From NCBI RefSeq assembly GCF_053078305.1, contig NZ_CP166879.1: a stretch of DNA of 64,000 nucleotides; one strand, written 5' to 3'. How positions within the stretch are numbered: the first letter of the stretch is position 1; each line of letters begins with the position of its first letter. The position numbers and the translations under genes are program-made. Shown here piece after piece: positions 26,405 to 64,000 of the stretch. The notes under the pieces were generated by a model, which was not told the DNA's origin, searched no databases, and saw only the letters and a list, made by a program, of their open reading frames with translations.

Positions 26405-26480
<76 letters not shown>

Positions 26481-26515
26481 TTGGGTGGTCTGTGCCTTAC
26501 AGCACTTTCAAATTT

Positions 26516-26591
<76 letters not shown>

Positions 26592-26627
26592 TTGGGTGGT
26601 CTGTGCTTTGCAGCACTTTTCAAATTT

Positions 26628-26703
<76 letters not shown>

Positions 26704-55875: not shown

Positions 55876-55951
55876 GCCCGGATAGCTCAGTCGGTAGAGC
55901 AGGGGATTGAAAATCCCCGTGTCGGTGGTTCGATTCCGCCTCCGGGCACCA
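55876..55951 (+). tRNA. pheU: tRNA-Phe (GAA) with variant T-stem
   Basis: GCCCGGATAGCTCAGTCGGTAGAGCAGGGGATTGAAAATCCCCGTGTCGGTGGTTCGATTCCGCCTCCGGGCACCA; identical to recalled E. coli tRNA-Phe except two compensatory base-pair changes in the T-stem (49-65 and 50-64). Confidence 0.95.
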
Positions 55952-56146: not shown

Positions 56147-57217
56147 TCAAGATTTATTCCCCCCTTTGCAAATCTTGCTCACTGTGCGCTCATCTGTATA
56201 CAAACTCAGGGCATCTTCCAGTGTCTGCGCTGCAGACTCCATACAGACATCAACATACCCCATGGTCGTTGTAAGACTCCTGTGTCCCAGTATGGATTTG
56301 ACCAGATGTAAATTACGTTCAGGATATTTCATCAGTCTGGTTGCCAGCGTATGTCTGAAACGATGTGGTGAAACAGGAAAACCACATTCTCGCGAAAGTC
56401 GCCGGAAAAATGAACGTACGGTCTGATGCGCCCGAACGGGACAGTACTGATATCTGTCGGCAGAGATCGGCTCACTGAAACGACAGACGTCAAAAAGATA
56501 GTCATCATCACCTGCCCCGCACTGACGGGCCCGCTCCAGCAGTTTTTCCATCGATACCTTCAGGGGAGCCACCAGAGGAACGCCCCATTCCCTGTGAGTT
56601 TTACTTCCCTCCAGCTTAAGATCAATTATGCTTTCATCCGGACAGACATCCCTCACACGGATATGCTTCAGTTGATTAAAGCGCATTCCGGTATAACGCA
56701 GAACATCCAGAACTGTCAGCCAGTACCAGGCAGGGTATATAGCATTGCGTCGACGACTATTCACCATGTTCTGCTCTTCCGCTTCTGCAAACCTCTGCAC
56801 AACCAGGTAAACCCTGAGCATCTGATTGTCACTCAGTGTCTTTTTCTTTTTTTCAGTACTCGCAACTGATGCTTCCACCAACGGGTTTTCTGTCTGAGGC
56901 AGCAGTTTCATCTTGATCCCGAATCCCATAATTGCCCGCAAGTGGGCCACCTTGTTATTCCAGGTCACCTCCCTGCGCTTCTGCTCTTTCAGGACATAAC
57001 GCCGGTATCGCTGAACATCACGGACAGTCACCTCCCCCGGCAAAATATCACCGATAAATTCCCTGAATACCCTGACAACTTTGCAGTAGCTCCACTCTGT
57101 ATCCGGCCGAAGATTCTTTGAAAAAAAGTACTCTTCCAGCAGTTGTTCCCAGGTGATTTTTGTGACGGAATCGTCATTCTGCATTATATATTCCCCTTGT
57201 TTACTGTGCTCCCGCAC
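56147..57217 (-). CDS. tyrosine-type site-specific recombinase (island integrase)
   Basis: ORF 356 aa; C-terminal catalytic residues visible (HRFRHT ... LGHRS ... MGYV with catalytic Tyr); transcribed toward the tRNA-Phe attachment site; possible alternative start at ATG 57184. Confidence 0.85.
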   Translation of the reverse strand: MREHSKQGEYIMQNDDSVTKITWEQLLEEYFFSKNLRPDTEWSYCKVVRVFREFIGDILPGEVTVRDVQRYRRYVLKEQKRREVTWNNKVAHLRAIMGFGIKMKLLPQTENPLVEASVASTEKKKKTLSDNQMLRVYLVVQRFAEAEEQNMVNSRRRNAIYPAWYWLTVLDVLRYTGMRFNQLKHIRVRDVCPDESIIDLKLEGSKTHREWGVPLVAPLKVSMEKLLERARQCGAGDDDYLFDVCRFSEPISADRYQYCPVRAHQTVRSFFRRLSRECGFPVSPHRFRHTLATRLMKYPERNLHLVKSILGHRSLTTTMGYVDVCMESAAQTLEDALSLYTDERTVSKICKGGNKS

Positions 57218-57251: not shown

Positions 57252-58739
57252 TCACCCGAAAACAATAAGCGGGCTGTCTCCGGGAACCGTAATATTCCCG
57301 TACAGAAACCTGCCCTTAACCAGATATCCCGAAACCATTTTGTAACGTCCGGAATGTTCTGCGTCACTATAAAGACGGGCCTGAAAAAAACGCTCTCCTG
57401 AACGTACCTTATGGATACCTGCCCGTTCAAAGAGCGACTGAACATAACGACGATCCTGCCCGGAACCACTCTCCTTCAGAAAACGATAAAAAATCCCCGG
57501 GGCACACAGAAAAACATATCCGGAAACAACATGAACATTTGAATCAACGCTGTTAACCGAAAGTGAACCCTCCCTCAGCCCCTCTTTTAACCATCTGATA
57601 AATTCACTCTCTACCCTGCTATCCTCTGTCAGGGAAAACTCTGCCGTTTTTTCCACTGTTTCCGGGATACGGTTTCCCTGATTTTCTGTTACACATCCGC
57701 TCTCTTCCGGTAACTCAATACCGCTTTCTTTATCCGGCGGCACGCCTGACGCTATCTGCCCTCCCTCATCCGACAAATCAGCAGCAGAAAACAGCGTAAG
57801 GAGCATTCCGGTATCAGCATCAGTTTCGTTCCCCTCATCCACCTCCTGTTCCGCTGTCCGGCCCTCATTTTCGGCATCCTCCACTGGCGACTGTACAACC
57901 GGCAACGGCTGAATGACGCTTTCTGCTGAAATTGCTGCTGACTGCAGCAGTACCGGAACAACCTCAGCCACCGGAACTTCGGCCACATCTCCTGCAGCGA
58001 GGGGACTCACGACTTCCTCCATAGCTTCCTGTAATACTGTACGTATCAGTGCCATTTCAGGATGCTGATGCCAGACTGCTCCGGCAAGATTCTGTAATGC
58101 CCCCGGGACAGTGGCAAGCCAGGCTCCCGCCTCTCCGGGCAGCAGTTGTCCCGCCATCAGGGCTGCCAGTTGCCGTCCCTCCGTTCCCTGGCAGGGCATC
58201 TTCCTGAACCGGAACCGGTATACGCCCTCAGGTACAGATATCCCCGGCTGCCAGCATCTGCCGTCGGCCTGTTCGCCTTCCAGTTCCGCCAGCAACGGCA
58301 GGTGATAAAACAGAGCCGACCAGAACACCACCATGTTCCACACACTCCCCTGCGCGGCCTGCTCTTCTGCTGTCGCTCCCGGTGGAAACATTCTGCCTCT
58401 GGCCAGCCGGACAGCATACGTCGTGAACTGCAGGGTCAGGTCACCAAAACCACCGGTGTAACCCCAGCGACCTTCTGCTGTGGCCGGCAGATTCTGACTG
58501 ACAGACAACAACTGATGCACAGGATCAAGACAAAGGCGCTGATACATATCCACCGGCATGGAACTGTTTTCCCATAACTGTTTCAGACACCTTTTCCTGA
58601 ACGGTGTGGATACCAGTACATCAGCCGGCAATGGTGTAAAATACCCCTCCGGCACCGTTTCCCCGGGAATATCCGTCCGGACATCAGAACATTCTGTCTT
58701 CACAGGAAATAACCTTTTCAGGCGTTCAAGCATGCCCAT
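57252..58739 (-). CDS. hypothetical 495-aa protein, translationally coupled partner of the SF1 helicase
   Basis: ORF 57252..58739; start overlaps helicase stop by 14 nt; N-domain and C-domain separated by an acidic low-complexity linker (about 57,630-57,900); no Walker A, HD or HNH motif recognisable by eye. Confidence 0.6.
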   Translation of the reverse strand: MGMLERLKRLFPVKTECSDVRTDIPGETVPEGYFTPLPADVLVSTPFRKRCLKQLWENSSMPVDMYQRLCLDPVHQLLSVSQNLPATAEGRWGYTGGFGDLTLQFTTYAVRLARGRMFPPGATAEEQAAQGSVWNMVVFWSALFYHLPLLAELEGEQADGRCWQPGISVPEGVYRFRFRKMPCQGTEGRQLAALMAGQLLPGEAGAWLATVPGALQNLAGAVWHQHPEMALIRTVLQEAMEEVVSPLAAGDVAEVPVAEVVPVLLQSAAISAESVIQPLPVVQSPVEDAENEGRTAEQEVDEGNETDADTGMLLTLFSAADLSDEGGQIASGVPPDKESGIELPEESGCVTENQGNRIPETVEKTAEFSLTEDSRVESEFIRWLKEGLREGSLSVNSVDSNVHVVSGYVFLCAPGIFYRFLKESGSGQDRRYVQSLFERAGIHKVRSGERFFQARLYSDAEHSGRYKMVSGYLVKGRFLYGNITVPGDSPLIVFG

Positions 58740-60276
58740 TCTCCTGAACCCGACCTGATGTGTCGTACCCGGTCCCCCGCAGACCTTCAGTTTTCTGCTG
58801 TTCTTCTGCCAGTTGGTGCATCAGGTCATTCAGTACCAGCGTCCTGAGGGCCCGGGTGACAGCCACATATAACAGACAGGTTTCATCATGACGCTCGGCC
58901 TCCGTCATCAGCGGAACCGTGATATCCTGGAAATCCTCATCCAGCATTACAACCGGCCACTCCAGCCCCTTGCTCCGGTGTGCCGTTGACACCGTGATAT
59001 CTGCATCCTGCTCATTCGTTACCGTATACTGCCGGAGAAGTTCCAGTTTTTTCGGTAACGGAAAACACAACTCCAGAAGCCGAAGGGACTGATTCATCTC
59101 CACATCCTTCGTGGATTTTGCAATATATTTATATTCTTCAAAATTCCTGTAGTCCCGGCGCAGCCTGTCTGAATGCATCCGTTCCGGCATATCAACCTGG
59201 AACCAGTAGAGATCCTCAAGTTCCCCGGTCCTGTAACCTTCGATTCCCCCCACCCAGTAAACCTTTTGCCCTTTCATTGCCGCCATCAGCGCAGTACCAA
59301 TCACACCCGCGACAGTACGACTGAGTACCGTGTAATGCCCCTGCAGATGTTCACGCGCATGGCATTTCAGCAATACCTCATCATCACCACCACAACCTTT
59401 CACCTCTCGTGTTTCACCTTCACGCTGCAGAAGCAGATTTGCCATACGAGCCACCGCCGGACCAAAACGGAAACTCTGTGTCAGCCACAACCGGTCCGCA
59501 TTCTTCAGTGCAGGATGGGAAAGCGCATTATTCGCACCCCGAAAGCGGTAAATCTGTTGATAACAATCTCCAACAAGGACCACCCGACACTTCTGCCCCA
59601 GAACCAGAGCAGTGGTCACCGGATTCGCATCCTGCGCCTCATCAAACAGGATGGTGTCCCATCGGTGAGACAGGTCTGCACCGGACAACTGGAAGAGTTT
59701 CAGATAAGTATCGTGCGTCACCGGGAACGTCCCCCCGGGGTTGCTCATTTCGTTCCAGAGCAACTGCACCGCCCGAAGCGCATCTGCTGGCGGAACACCC
59801 CGCATCTCATCCTTATCCGGCAGGTGATGCAGGCCCGGTACCGCATCAGCAGAACAGATAAAATGATTCAGCCCCGTCCCTGCCACCCGTGCCAGAGCCC
59901 AGTATCGTGTATTCAGCTTTCTCGCCACATCAGTAATACGTAATCCCGGAACCAGCCGATGACGGTAGTGTCTTCCAACCCGGGCATACGCCAGCTGATG
60001 TGACGTTCTGCATTCCACGTTAAAGGGAAATTTACGCTCTGCCTCATCACGTATTGCCCGGTTATAGGCAAGATAGAGCATACGGCTGTCCGGACTGGCC
60101 CGGGCAAACTGCACCAGCGTACTCGTCTTCCCTGTGCCGGAAAACGCATTCACAACCAGTTGCTGCCCCTGCCAGTTAATAATGGCGTACTGTTCATCTG
60201 TGGGATTAAAAGACATGTATTCTCTTCTCCGGAAAAACATTTCCGTAATCTGATGCATCAGGGGTATGCCCACCAC
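58726..60276 (-). CDS. superfamily-1 UvrD/PcrA-like DNA helicase
   Basis: ORF 516 aa; Walker A SGTGKT (about 60,124-60,141), motif II FDEAQD, motif IV QSFRF, motif V/VI TAHRSKGLEWPVV; true start may be an internal ATG (MSFNPTDEQ..., 60216). Confidence 0.85.
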   Translation of the reverse strand: MVGIPLMHQITEMFFRRREYMSFNPTDEQYAIINWQGQQLVVNAFSGTGKTSTLVQFARASPDSRMLYLAYNRAIRDEAERKFPFNVECRTSHQLAYARVGRHYRHRLVPGLRITDVARKLNTRYWALARVAGTGLNHFICSADAVPGLHHLPDKDEMRGVPPADALRAVQLLWNEMSNPGGTFPVTHDTYLKLFQLSGADLSHRWDTILFDEAQDANPVTTALVLGQKCRVVLVGDCYQQIYRFRGANNALSHPALKNADRLWLTQSFRFGPAVARMANLLLQREGETREVKGCGGDDEVLLKCHAREHLQGHYTVLSRTVAGVIGTALMAAMKGQKVYWVGGIEGYRTGELEDLYWFQVDMPERMHSDRLRRDYRNFEEYKYIAKSTKDVEMNQSLRLLELCFPLPKKLELLRQYTVTNEQDADITVSTAHRSKGLEWPVVMLDEDFQDITVPLMTEAERHDETCLLYVAVTRALRTLVLNDLMHQLAEEQQKTEGLRGTGYDTSGRVQENGHA

Positions 60277-60447
60277 AAATAACTCTGTACAGCAACAGAA
60301 AAATTTCCCTGGTCATATGATGAATTAATCATCGCCATCACACCGGATGCTTCTCATCCTGTCCTCAGAAAGACAGGTGGTCTCCTGTCTGCCGCGCTTA
60401 TCCAGGATACCGGGACCTGAAAGGTCATAATCTGGCAGGAAAAAATA

Positions 60448-62124
60448 ATGTCCGAAGTAAAAAAACACGTTTCTTATTCATTAACAGTTGCAGCTATGCT
60501 GTCAGCCGCCATCGTCTGTCAGACAGCACATGCTGATATCAACACACCGAACATCACCGGAGAAAAAAACAATACAACAACACGATTCTCCGGAAATATT
60601 TACGGCAGTGAAAATACTGTCACATCAGAGTCAAACAGTCTGGTTGTGGGTAACAGTAATTCCGTGGAGGGAGGGTATAACAACATTGTTATTGGTAATT
60701 CCTCCACGGTCAAAGCTTCCGGTTTGATCAGAAAAGTGGGCGAAGATATTGTGCTGGATGGTTACAGCGTCAGCCTCGGTAATGCCACCAGAATTAACGG
60801 TGATTCATCTGTTGCCATAGGTCTGACATCGTCCGTAACCGGGAACGACTCCGTGGCACTGGGCAGTCATTCCAGTGCTAACGGAAACAATATCGTATCC
60901 GTCGGCTCTGACACACTGAAACGCCGCATCACAAATCTGGCACAGGGGAAAGATGACCATGATGCGGTAAATCTGATGCAGATGACCAGTGCTGTTAACC
61001 GGGAAGCTGGAGAAAGAATAAAATCAACAAACAACCTGCAGAATCAGCTTAATACCCTCTCTGGTCAGGTCATAACTGAAACCAGGGCCCGAACAGAAGG
61101 TGATGCAGCAGCGCTGGCTGCAGCCAGAGCCCACAGCGATGAAAACGACAAAAGAACACTGGTCAGTGCGAATACCTATGCTGACCAGAAAGAAACCGCC
61201 ATCAATAACCGTACTGACGGATTACTGACGACCGAACGCCAGGCACGCACCGCAGGCGATACTGCAACTCTGGCTGCTGCCAGAACGCACAGCGATGAAA
61301 ACAACAAAAGAACACTGATCAGTGCGAATACCTATGCTGACCAGAAAGAAACCGCCATCAATAACCGTACTGACGGATTACTGGCTACAGAACGCCAGGC
61401 ACGCACCGCAGGCGATACTGCAACTCTGGCTGCTGCCAGAACGCACAGCGATGAAAACAACAAAAGAACACTGGTCAGTGCGAATACTTATGCTGACCAG
61501 AAAGAAACCGACATCAATAACCGTACTGACGGATTACTGGCTACAGAACGCCAGGCACGCACCGCAGGCGATACTGCAACTCTGGCTGCTGCCAGAACGC
61601 ACAGCGATGAAAACAACAAAAGAACACTGATCAGTGCGAATACCTATGCTGACCAGAAAGAAACCGCCATCAATAACCGTACTGACGGATTACTGACGAC
61701 CGAACGCCAGGCACGCATCGCAGGTGATGCCGCAACTCTGGCAACAGCAGCGGCATACAGTGACGCCGGGGATTCACTGACACTGAAACAGGCAACAGCC
61801 TACAGCGATATCAGTACCCGCCGGGCACTGTCAGAGGCCAATCGTTATACCGACAACAAATTCAGAAACCTGAGCAATAAAATTGAACGGGCAGAAAAAA
61901 GACTTAATGCAGGCATCGCCGGAGTGACAGCAATATCCTCCATCCCCTATGTGGCTGAAAATTCTTTTTCATACGGGATCGGCGTGGGTAACTATCAGAA
62001 CGCTAATGCTGTGGCCGCAGGCATTCAGTATAAAACATCACGTAATACCAATATACGCCTCAACATCTCCTGGGACTCATCTCATAACACCGCGATTGGT
62101 GCAGGGGTTGCCGGCGGCTGGTAA
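60448..62124 (+). CDS. YadA-like trimeric autotransporter adhesin (Eib/Saa-like architecture)
   Basis: ORF 558 aa; signal peptide, head with NSxxxG/SxxxG YadA-head repeats, neck, repeat-containing coiled-coil stalk, C-terminal YadA-type beta-barrel anchor ending ...AIGAGVAGGW. Confidence 0.85.
   Translation: MSEVKKHVSYSLTVAAMLSAAIVCQTAHADINTPNITGEKNNTTTRFSGNIYGSENTVTSESNSLVVGNSNSVEGGYNNIVIGNSSTVKASGLIRKVGEDIVLDGYSVSLGNATRINGDSSVAIGLTSSVTGNDSVALGSHSSANGNNIVSVGSDTLKRRITNLAQGKDDHDAVNLMQMTSAVNREAGERIKSTNNLQNQLNTLSGQVITETRARTEGDAAALAAARAHSDENDKRTLVSANTYADQKETAINNRTDGLLTTERQARTAGDTATLAAARTHSDENNKRTLISANTYADQKETAINNRTDGLLATERQARTAGDTATLAAARTHSDENNKRTLVSANTYADQKETDINNRTDGLLATERQARTAGDTATLAAARTHSDENNKRTLISANTYADQKETAINNRTDGLLTTERQARIAGDAATLATAAAYSDAGDSLTLKQATAYSDISTRRALSEANRYTDNKFRNLSNKIERAEKRLNAGIAGVTAISSIPYVAENSFSYGIGVGNYQNANAVAAGIQYKTSRNTNIRLNISWDSSHNTAIGAGVAGGW
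61087..61710 (+). repeat. four near-identical tandem 156-bp (52-aa) repeats within the adhesin stalk, plus a degenerate fifth copy
   Basis: Units begin at 61087, 61243, 61399, 61555 (each starting gca cgc acc gca ggc gat = ARTAGD); partial degenerate unit from 61711. Confidence 0.9.
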
Positions 62125-62269: not shown

Positions 62270-62296
62270 CGGCGGCAGATTTCCTGCCGCCGTGTT
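62270..62296. terminator. GC-rich hairpin between convergent adhesin and toxin genes (candidate bidirectional terminator)
   Basis: ccggcggcag-atttc-ctgccgccg; no strong flanking T-run, so terminator function is uncertain. Confidence 0.45.
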
Positions 62297-62363: not shown

Positions 62364-62852
62364 TTATTTTATTGTGGATAATGATGCCAATGGCATGAAT
62401 AAAGTTCTTCCGGACTCCGGGAACGCCATAAAGCCATAATGTTTGTAAAATGCGACTGCCGTGTCATCTTTTGCATCAACAATAAGCGCATATGCTGCAA
62501 TTTCAGATGTGTATGCACGATATAGCGCATCAGCTAAAAGTGCTCCCCCAAGCCCCGTTCCTTTTGATGACAGACTTACTGCCAGTCGTCCCATACGAAT
62601 AGCCGGAATAGTGGGATATCGCGGAAGCTTTTTTCTCAAATGCTCAGGTAAGTCAGTTAATAATATACTGGCCGCTGATAACGTATAGTATCCGATGATA
62701 TGATGATCGTTATCTACAGCGACAAAACAGGCCGCGATGCGTCGTCGAATATCCTGTGTGACATGCTCTTTTATGTAACGGTCCAGAGCATCAGAGCCAC
62801 ATAAAAATGAGGTTCTGTCATATGTGCTGTTAAATGGTGTCAGTTGAAACAT
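62364..62852 (-). CDS. GNAT-family acetyltransferase toxin (TacT/AtaT/KacT-like)
   Basis: ORF 162 aa; acetyl-CoA-binding region with Gly-rich loop (TGLGGALLADA) and conserved Tyr; sits 5 nt downstream of a DUF1778 gene. Confidence 0.82.
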   Translation of the reverse strand: MFQLTPFNSTYDRTSFLCGSDALDRYIKEHVTQDIRRRIAACFVAVDNDHHIIGYYTLSAASILLTDLPEHLRKKLPRYPTIPAIRMGRLAVSLSSKGTGLGGALLADALYRAYTSEIAAYALIVDAKDDTAVAFYKHYGFMAFPESGRTLFMPLASLSTIK

Positions 62853-62857
62853 TATAT

Positions 62858-63139
62858 TTATTTTGTGTACAGCATATTATTACGGCGTTTAAAGGCCCGT
62901 TTAAGCGCATCATTCGGCTCTGTTGGTGACAGTAATGCCTGAGCAAAAATTTCCTGATCTGTCCGGGACAGTCGGATTATATCGGTTTGTTCGATAGCGC
63001 GTTGGGCCGCATCCTGAACGGCAGCAATGATAAAATCGGTCATAGTGCGCCCCTGGATTTCTGCAGCGCGCTTCAGCATGGCATGTAGTTCTGTGCTGAT
63101 CCTTGCTTCCAGTCGGGCAGTTTGTGTTGCAGATGGCAT
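62858..63139 (-). CDS. DUF1778 (RHH-like) antitoxin, TacA-like
   Basis: ORF 93 aa; N-terminal segment RLEARISTELHAMLKRAAEIQGRTMTDFI typical of DUF1778 antitoxins; upstream of the GNAT toxin. Confidence 0.8.
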   Translation of the reverse strand: MPSATQTARLEARISTELHAMLKRAAEIQGRTMTDFIIAAVQDAAQRAIEQTDIIRLSRTDQEIFAQALLSPTEPNDALKRAFKRRNNMLYTK

Positions 63140-63556: not shown

Positions 63557-64000
63557 TCACCGGATATAGGAGAAGGCCGTCGTGACCCGCTTCACTCCGC
63601 TCACCCTACTGGCAACATCTGCTGCCGCTCGCCCTTCCTGCTCTGTAACCAGGCCCAGTAAAAAGACTTCGCTGTTTTCTGTCACCACCTTGACACTGGA
63701 TGATTTGACACGGGCACTTGTGAGTAACTGAGAACGAATTTTTGTCGTAAGCCAGGCATCACCTGCCATTATGACCGGACTGACGGGTGTCCCCTGCCGG
63801 ATTTCATTATAGACCTCCTGAACACCATCGACACCGAGTGCTATCTGACGGGCACGGGCAGATAATTCACGGCCCGGAGACTGACCGATCAGCAGCACGC
63901 GTCCCTGATATGCAATCTCACTGATACGTGCTTCTTTTCTGATTTGTTCATCTTTTGAAAGTGCACTGCTGACCCTCAGCTCCAGCACTTCATCATCCAC
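63557..64000 (-). CDS. DolP/YraP-like dual-BON-domain lipoprotein paralog, C-terminal 147 aa (5' end outside window)
   Basis: Translation aligns by eye along its whole visible length with recalled E. coli DolP (YraP), e.g. LEVRVNSALSKDEQIKKEARI / GQSP..ELSARA / VKRVTTAF blocks, at roughly 60-70% identity. Confidence 0.8.
   Translation of the reverse strand: MDDEVLELRVSSALSKDEQIRKEARISEIAYQGRVLLIGQSPGRELSARARQIALGVDGVQEVYNEIRQGTPVSPVIMAGDAWLTTKIRSQLLTSARVKSSSVKVVTENSEVFLLGLVTEQEGRAAADVASRVSGVKRVTTAFSYIR

Follow-up and report, generated by a model that had tools for sequence, protein, structure and literature searches.

What does the repeat-bearing gene at positions 60448–62124 of the DNA analysed here encode, does the length of its product vary in nature, and why does it stand next to the genes of a mobile element? 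The DNA in question, hereafter the window, is a stretch of 64,000 nucleotides from contig NZ_CP166879.1 (NCBI RefSeq assembly GCF_053078305.1). An initial annotation had proposed an island-borne, YadA-like trimeric autotransporter whose tandem repeats predict recombination-mediated variation in stalk length. Our analysis leads to a closely related reading, to which we attach a probability of about 0.78: the gene codes for a functional type Vc adhesin (a trimeric autotransporter adhesin, TAA), the stalk length of which is changed by recombination between repeats, and it is carried as cargo by a decayed integrative and conjugative element (ICE) of the PFGI-1/SPI-7 class inserted at pheU.

The TAA assignment is supported along the whole of the 558-residue product, which displays a single head, a neck, a stalk and an anchor. 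Pfam recognizes the head (YadA_head, PF05658, residues 117–142), the start of the stalk (YadA_stalk, PF05662, residues 160–199) and the membrane anchor (YadA_anchor, PF03895, residues 503–554, E 2.7e-08). The presence of a β-barrel anchor, on which the initial annotation had made its assignment depend, means that this assignment stands. A sequence search against the PDB returned, at the 0.01 E-value level, TAA fragments exclusively (from SadA, YadA, BoaA, BpaC, AtaA and Hia). The best of these matches are two SadA fragments that align at the neck (2yo0, E 4.1e-14, and 2yo3, E 3e-10); the head is matched by phmmer to those of YadA (1p9h), BoaA (3s6l) and BpaC (7o23); residues 443–499 correspond to the YadA stalk fragments 3h7x, 3lt6 and 3lt7 and lie within a C-terminal coiled-coil segment (residues 420–499) that contains YSD, YSD and YTD motifs; and the anchor is matched by 2lme, 3emo, 2gr7 and 9vnj, which include the membrane anchors of YadA, Hia and AtaA. 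Comparison of folds gives the same picture: all eight Foldseek matches with an E-value of 0.001 or lower, as well as the next seven (up to 0.012), are TAA fragments, the best-ranked being YadA-like heads, and SadA head–neck fragments show 38–48% identity over 68–97 aligned columns. NCBIfam yielded only sub-threshold matches, to YadA and BimA. In the AlphaFold2 model of the monomer, short strands (residues 35–138) are followed by a long helix (residues 176–497) and four C-terminal strands (residues 507–516, 519–531, 534–544 and 554–557), in line with the order of the domains above. Finally, the N-terminus looks by eye like a signal peptide, with a basic KK n-region before a hydrophobic core, and with A-H-A (AHA/D) as the cleavage motif; residues 1–32 have a predicted local distance difference test (pLDDT) score below 50 in the model. 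An AGGA motif lies at 60437–60440, 7 nt 5′ of the ATG.

Four 52-residue modules, encoded by tandem 156-nt units, make up about two thirds of the stalk. Tandem Repeats Finder detects a single array at 61114–61742 (period 156, 4.0 copies, 95% matches, no indels, score 1132); we phased the unit borders on the protein motif, so that the array runs from 61081 to 61704, and the array that the initial annotation had placed at 61087–61710 is the same one in another phase. The description of the four units as nearly identical is exact for units 2–4 and slightly generous for unit 1. Units 2–4 share 150–153 of their 156 nt pairwise (96–98%) and 49–51 of 52 residues, unit 2 being identical to units 3 and 4 at 153 positions each, whereas unit 1 shares just 134–138 nt (86–88%) and 43–44 residues with the other three. 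The longest exact run in register, 147 nt between units 2 and 4, is far above chance. The array is followed by the start of a fifth, degenerate unit, just 67–73 nt of which are identical to the other units.

Comparison of copy number among isolates, as the initial annotation had suggested, reveals that stalk length does vary, and that it varies by whole modules. In a set of 5,426 complete genomes of E. coli, 24 (~0.4%) had a match to the adhesin, and the 127 places matched in this set all lie on the chromosome. The carriers are mostly strains with names of the type used for E. coli that produce Shiga toxin (STEC), from STEC collections and cattle. In closed genomes the gene is 1677 bp (n = 9), 1521 bp (n = 11) or 1365 bp long (n = 1), corresponding to four, three and two units, and the reading frame is intact in all three forms. 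In a large protein collection, the 77 full-length proteins fall into classes of 402 (n = 19), 454/455 (n = 41), 506 (n = 14) and 558 residues (n = 3), none being longer; a one-unit form thus joins the series in draft genomes, and the natural alleles of 558, 506, 454 and 402 residues are separated by steps of whole 52-residue units. A second lineage, of ~78% identity, also comprises two- and three-unit forms.

The way in which polymorphisms are distributed points to exchange between units. We compared eight alleles, all from closed genomes. Leaving SCU-171 aside (see below), the 5′ part (633 nt) and the 3′ part (420 nt) each differ at 0–4 positions among these alleles, while the alleles hold 21 distinct 156-nt units, which are mosaics of a few polymorphisms shuffled at positions 23, 28, 40 and 50 of the unit. 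The two flanks have a nucleotide diversity of 0.0045 and 0.0075, compared with 0.024 for the first units and 0.039 for the inner units. The two-unit allele of strain STEC1585 is identical to the four-unit allele of the window over the whole 633-nt 5′ part and unit 1, a sign of recent change, and unit 3 of the window is identical to the middle unit of the three-unit allele of strain S19-141. Near-identical flanks surrounding many mosaic units are the signature of repeated unequal exchange and conversion between units.

Several observations weigh against this reading or limit its reach. The 402-residue, one-unit form is found only in draft or metagenome contigs, in which collapse of the repeats is possible, and many proteins from drafts are recorded as 'partial' and end inside the array, suggesting that some short forms may be collapsed assemblies. 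In SCU-171, an E. coli strain from a healthy student, the three-unit gene has a replaced 5′ end, beside IS66-family tnpA/tnpB genes: the match begins at query base 95, the rest of the 5′ part carries 45 differences and the gene probably lacks a signal peptide. The adhesin is thus dispensable in that strain. Upstream of the window gene, a consensus scan detected no promoter, the counts being those expected from shuffling. The AlphaFold2 monomer is of modest confidence (pLDDT 66.6, predicted template modelling score 0.30) and informs on secondary structure only; as a one-chain model, it is silent on trimerization, and its helix breaks at residues 280–289 and 438–444 are of low confidence and probably artefacts of modelling a single chain. 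Finally, the hydrophobic periodicity of the 52-residue unit peaks at 3.47 (52/15), with a weak signal at 3.72 (52/14), the Saa units giving 3.70. A coiled-coil register in which the 52 residues split into 15 + 15 + 15 + 7 over 14 turns was considered and rejected on account of this spectrum, so that we limit the claim to 52 = 37 + 15, as given by the alignment with Saa described below.

Part of these observations feeds the alternative that fares best, namely that the differences in copy number arose neutrally from recombination-prone DNA, or in part through assembly collapse, and that length has no adaptive role. Besides the broken draft proteins and a one-unit form seen outside closed genomes, it can invoke the polymorphic codons of the inner units, which are amino-acid-changing in 10 cases and silent in 9 and hence give no clear signal of positive selection. 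We consider this alternative unlikely, though by some distance the most serious: the two-, three- and four-unit alleles are established in closed genomes with intact frames, the variation recurs in the lineage of ~78% identity, and the homologous Saa varies likewise.

If, as we favour, the gene encodes a functional adhesin with a recombining stalk, its mode of action can be sketched from what is known of the family. The precursor would be exported via Sec and cleaved after residue 29. The four-strand C-terminal segments of three chains would then assemble into a 12-strand barrel in the outer membrane, through which the three passengers would cross and fold as a lollipop, a small YadA-like β-roll head being joined by a neck to the stalk, a trimeric coiled coil ~320 residues in length; trimeric display at the cell surface is what we infer from the family. 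Whole in-frame modules would be gained or lost, and their polymorphisms shuffled, when units undergo unequal homologous recombination or slip against each other during replication. One unit would amount to ~7.7 nm of fibre (52 residues × ~0.148 nm), so that stalks would span roughly 25 to 48 nm, and stalk length would set how far the head projects beyond O-antigen or capsule, while the exposed stalk surface would differ among strains. The examples of Saa and YadA make it likely that the protein causes cells to aggregate and to adhere to surfaces, host or abiotic.

The features of the locus are collected in Table 1. The island setting claimed by the initial annotation was borne out: on the left edge lies a tRNA-Phe gene, next to it a tyrosine recombinase, then a relaxase and a UvrD-like helicase, and the same module is found at pheU or pheV in other strains. 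The relaxase passes the NCBIfam model TIGR03760 ('ICE relaxase, PFGI-1 class') with 210.5 bits for a cut-off of 161.4, and on an identical contig it carries the Pfam domains TraI_2 and TraI_2_C. The window ends inside the island. Beyond its end, the identical contig continues with a DUF465 gene and a type III restriction–modification system, which lies ~5 kb past the window end and has a Mod subunit with an N6_N4_Mtase domain and a Res subunit with a ResIII domain. No mating-pore genes (the MPF_G set) were found in 10 kb downstream on the identical contig, nor in 20 kb downstream in strain OkiPb01692, where just PilI and ArdC remnants are present. In a related pheU island, other genes fill the slot after the helicase, indicating that this slot holds variable cargo.

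Table 1. Features of the adhesin gene, its product and the surrounding island, in window coordinates.
Feature	Position	Strand	Basis or remark
tRNA-Phe (pheU, downstream of dsbD/dicD); integration site, left island edge	55876..55951	+	ARAGORN; same arrangement in closed genomes
Tyrosine recombinase/integrase	56147..57217	-	Xer/integrase-type NCBIfam matches below cut-offs; annotation in homologous loci
ICE relaxase (TraI_2/MobH type, PFGI-1 class)	57252..58739	-	TIGR03760
UvrD-like helicase, divergent from adhesin	58726..60276	-	UvrD/PcrA/Rep-type matches below cut-off; UvrD-helicase domain annotation in homologous loci
Intergenic region upstream of adhesin, 171 bp	60277..60447	+	Sequence read directly
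Trimeric autotransporter adhesin gene	60448..62124	+	Intact open reading frame (ORF), ATG, 558 aa
Predicted Sec-type signal peptide, residues 1–29 (MSEVKKHVSYSLTVAAMLSAAIVCQTAHA/D)	60448..60534	+	Read from translation
YadA-like β-roll head, residues ~35–150	60550..60897	+	Pfam, phmmer, model strands, Foldseek
Neck and stalk start (RRITNLAQGKDDHDAVNLMQM...), residues 160–199	60925..61044	+	Pfam, SadA fragments
Stalk repeat unit 1, residues 212–263, divergent	61081..61236	+	Unit comparison
Stalk repeat unit 2, residues 264–315	61237..61392	+	Unit comparison
Stalk repeat unit 3, residues 316–367	61393..61548	+	Unit comparison
Stalk repeat unit 4, residues 368–419	61549..61704	+	Unit comparison
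102-aa ORF within repeat array, other frame	61322..61630	+	Itself repetitive; almost certainly a by-product of the repeats and no gene
Start of degenerate fifth unit plus conserved C-terminal coiled-coil segment, residues 420–499	61705..61944	+	Unit comparison, PDB matches
YadA-type membrane anchor, four strands per chain	61954..62121	+	Pfam, PDB matches, model
G+C-rich hairpin (10-bp stem) between convergent adhesin and GNAT genes	62270..62292		Terminator-like, minus strand only; likely a terminator
GNAT toxin (62364–62852) and TacA-family antitoxin (62858–63139)	62364..63139	-	ORFs; annotation in OkiPb01692
DolP (YraP) outer-membrane lipoprotein paralogue, BON domains, cut by window end	63557..64000	-	NF008247, 221.5 bits vs cut-off 184

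Two neighbours of the adhesin deserve comment. The GNAT/TacA pair, copies of which (94% identical) occur on many E. coli plasmids of 80–100 kb, occupies the slot in which STEC1585 has a second YadA-like gene. The DolP paralogue lies 1.4 kb from the adhesin and is complete on the identical contig, where it encodes a 191-residue BON protein; in STEC1585 it directly follows the second YadA-like gene. That this paralogue might be a dedicated helper of the adhesin was rejected, as it is missing in strain 2012EL-2448 and in all eight non-E. coli contexts: 2012EL-2448, the one closed genome with a four-unit allele that was inspected, has no DolP paralogue within 12 kb downstream of the adhesin, and in the other eight four-unit genomes the downstream match stops at the same point.

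Other YadA-like genes came up in the vicinity or in the searches. The second such gene of STEC1585, located downstream on the same island, encodes 425 residues and is unrelated to the first, the 36% identity between them being confined to the anchor region. A YadA C-terminal fragment, the third YadA-like sequence there, is found a further 6 kb on. Two YadA-like genes are annotated in each of S19-141 and OkiPb01714. In phage phiSTEC1589-Stx1c (PQ600364.1, 45015–46226), a product labelled 'terminase large subunit' is really a 403-residue trimeric autotransporter, the only TAA close to the top of the phage-collection matches, matching EibD 2xqh (weakly EibD-like, E 4.4e-07), the anchors of Hia and YadA, and AtaA; the label is probably a mis-annotation. 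Elsewhere in the window (26405–26703, minus strand), three tandem tRNA-Gly(GCC) genes spaced ~111 bp apart resemble an ordinary core-genome cluster.

The mobile setting of the gene raises the alternative that the protein serves the element itself, aggregating donor and recipient cells and stabilizing mating pairs, host adherence being a side effect. What speaks for it is mainly the company kept by the relatives. The adhesin forms its own cluster at the 50%-identity level, and the next relatives, none of which is named, share 35–50% identity with its C-terminal half. Among the eight nearest non-E. coli relatives (representatives of 50%-identity clusters), six are co-oriented inside operons for conjugative type IV secretion systems (T4SSs): two in the order VirB11–coupling protein–TrbM–TAA, two in the order VirB4..VirB11–TAA–TopA, and two, from Morganella and Serratia, in ICE-type operons with the order TAA–DUF1525–TraU–TraG_N, TraC lying directly upstream of the TAA in Morganella. 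From their TraU/TraG_N/DUF1525 content, we take the latter two operons to belong to the PFGI-1 class of ICEs, the class to which the window relaxase is also assigned. The best plasmid match, on a conjugative plasmid of the IncX3 type, comes after virB8–11, Cag12 and TrbM/KikA, and another follows traX/finO on an IncF plasmid. T4SS-embedded short TAAs occur in Salmonella, Pantoea, Serratia, Morganella and metagenomes, often by TrbM/KikA or between TraC and TraU; the one on the IncX3-type Salmonella plasmid pLG26p3 (WP_153789837.1) shows 37.7% identity over 86% of the query. These TAAs, all on mobile elements, have the same 52- and 37-residue stalk modules and anchor as the E. coli protein, but their modules are diverged instead of forming near-identical tandem copies, and their heads differ. 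Surface proteins of the TrbM/Pep type are reported to enhance conjugation (PMC13311141), which also counts in favour of a role in mating.

Nevertheless, we regard a mating function as improbable for the window gene. Unlike the relatives embedded in transfer operons, the E. coli gene stands in a cargo slot beside int–traI–uvrD that a related island fills with other genes, with the mating-pore genes missing from the 10 and 20 kb of downstream sequence described above. In addition, the searched literature contained no report of a TAA needed for conjugation, and gene position is by itself no demonstration of function. A broader proposal appears just as doubtful at present: that the Saa-like short TAAs as a clade might be an unrecognized accessory adhesin of conjugative elements (plasmids with a type T mating-pair formation system, MPF_T, and PFGI-1/SPI-7-class ICEs) that would keep donor and recipient cells in contact, that their modular 37/52-residue stalk might tune reach across the surface polysaccharide of the host, and that the E. 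coli gene might be a survivor of such a system on a decayed ICE.

Much less probable still is that the protein is an immunoglobulin-binding, serum-resistance protein of the Eib type, to which the initial annotation had likened it together with Saa. Its size and its single head–neck–stalk–anchor layout are indeed comparable to those of the Eibs, the EibD fragment 2xqh is found among the fold matches (Foldseek rank 10, E 1.5e-03, 18% identity), and the carriers mainly have STEC-type names, as is the case for Eib according to a review (PMC7247748). However, the resemblance to EibD stays at the level of the fold and is explained by the shared YadA-like head: EibD chains are absent from the phmmer matches even at E ≤ 10, a search that did find YadA, SadA, BoaA, BpaC, AtaA and Hia, and our comparison with the Eibs rests on these EibD PDB chains. 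No sequence similarity to the EibD passenger is detectable, no immunoglobulin-binding segment can be identified in the window protein, nothing in the analysis favours binding of IgG, and its stalk modules are Saa-like. The Eibs (EibA, C–G) are highly similar to one another and are encoded on lambdoid prophages, whereas the window gene lies off prophage, on an ICE-like island marked by its relaxase, UvrD-like helicase and integrase at tRNA-Phe; matches to the adhesin in a phage collection cover the anchor only. Lastly, it is scarcely credible that we are dealing with an assembly artefact in the array or with a pseudogene: short reads admittedly cope poorly with 156-bp tandem repeats, and databases hold many truncated entries, but the identical 558-residue protein (WP_044192258.1/KFD74025.1) has been recorded from two contigs, of 141,871 bp and 5.94 Mb, nine closed genomes carry four-unit alleles, the units bear distinguishing single-nucleotide polymorphisms, and the intact ORF comes with a predicted signal peptide and an anchor.

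The gene is an ordinary addition to a well-known adhesin family: the gene is uncharacterized, and its type of variability is known. It could nonetheless be put to several uses. The natural allelic series of one to four modules would allow the relation between adhesin length and shielding by O-antigen or capsule to be tested. The array could serve as a variable-number tandem repeat marker for typing. As the array breaks short-read assemblies, virulence-gene surveys can easily overlook the adhesin or get its size wrong. The tie of its relatives to conjugation operons offers a lead on mating adhesins in non-F-type Gram-negative elements.

How does the protein compare with the named adhesins? The giant TAAs exceed 1,400 residues and contain many alternating head and stalk segments. 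SadA, UpaG and EhaG belong to this type, and SadA head–neck fragments are the best PDB sequence matches of the window protein, but the latter has 558 residues, one head, one neck and one stalk, and is island cargo in 0.4% of complete genomes; the statement of the initial annotation that its size and layout are of the short type, not the giant UpaG/EhaG type, is therefore upheld. UpaG is given as 178 kDa in the review cited above (PMC7247748). With YadA, it shares the β-roll repeats of the head, which also resemble those of BoaA and BpaC, the coiled-coil segment preceding the anchor and the four-strand anchor. It is not YadA itself, since with the NCBIfam YadA model NF033478 it reaches 106 bits, the cut-off being 750; moreover, its stalk modules and repeat array are different, and the gene is not on a Yersinia virulence plasmid.

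The closest named relative is Saa. We took saa from pO113 (NC_007365, 143552–145153). BLASTP aligns the two proteins with 31% identity over 441 columns (E 2e-43, 24% gaps), from the last head repeats through the neck and stalk to the anchor. Both are short TAAs of STEC strains without the enterocyte effacement locus (LEE), a pathogenicity island. Their tandem stalk modules (ARxxGDxxTL...SANTYxxK...) and anchors are homologous, near-identical in-frame DNA repeats are present in both genes (111 bp × 4.8 copies, 99%, in pO113 saa according to Tandem Repeats Finder), and the size of both differs among strains. The 37-residue repeats of Saa, reportedly described by Paton et al. in 2001, are said to be variable in number. 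The units differ in length: each 37-residue unit of Saa aligns to a 52-residue unit with a single 15-residue gap, which corresponds to the extra 15 residues per unit. The heads also differ, the N-terminal 195 residues of Saa being unmatched in the window protein, which has a YadA-like β-roll there. As to location, saa lies on the large virulence (enterohaemolysin) plasmid, whereas the window gene is chromosomal, on an ICE-like island at pheU or pheV. An identity of 31% is, besides, far under the level required for the name saa, by which the pO113 copy itself is called at 95.69%. Saa brings about autoaggregation as well as adherence to HEp-2 cells and varies in size from strain to strain, and the characterized groups of E. 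coli TAAs listed in the same review are Eib, Saa, UpaG and EhaG only (PMC7247748). No paper naming the gene was found in the searched literature, including work on pheU/pheV islands and on the STEC adhesiome. Of the double resemblance put forward by the initial annotation, the part concerning Saa thus extends to homology, while that concerning Eib is confined to the fold. On the evidence of these alignments, the protein is an unnamed Saa-like TAA, a distant homologue of Saa with a different head, distinct from Saa itself as well as from Eib, YadA and UpaG/EhaG, and would form a fifth group of E. coli TAAs beside Eib, Saa, UpaG and EhaG.

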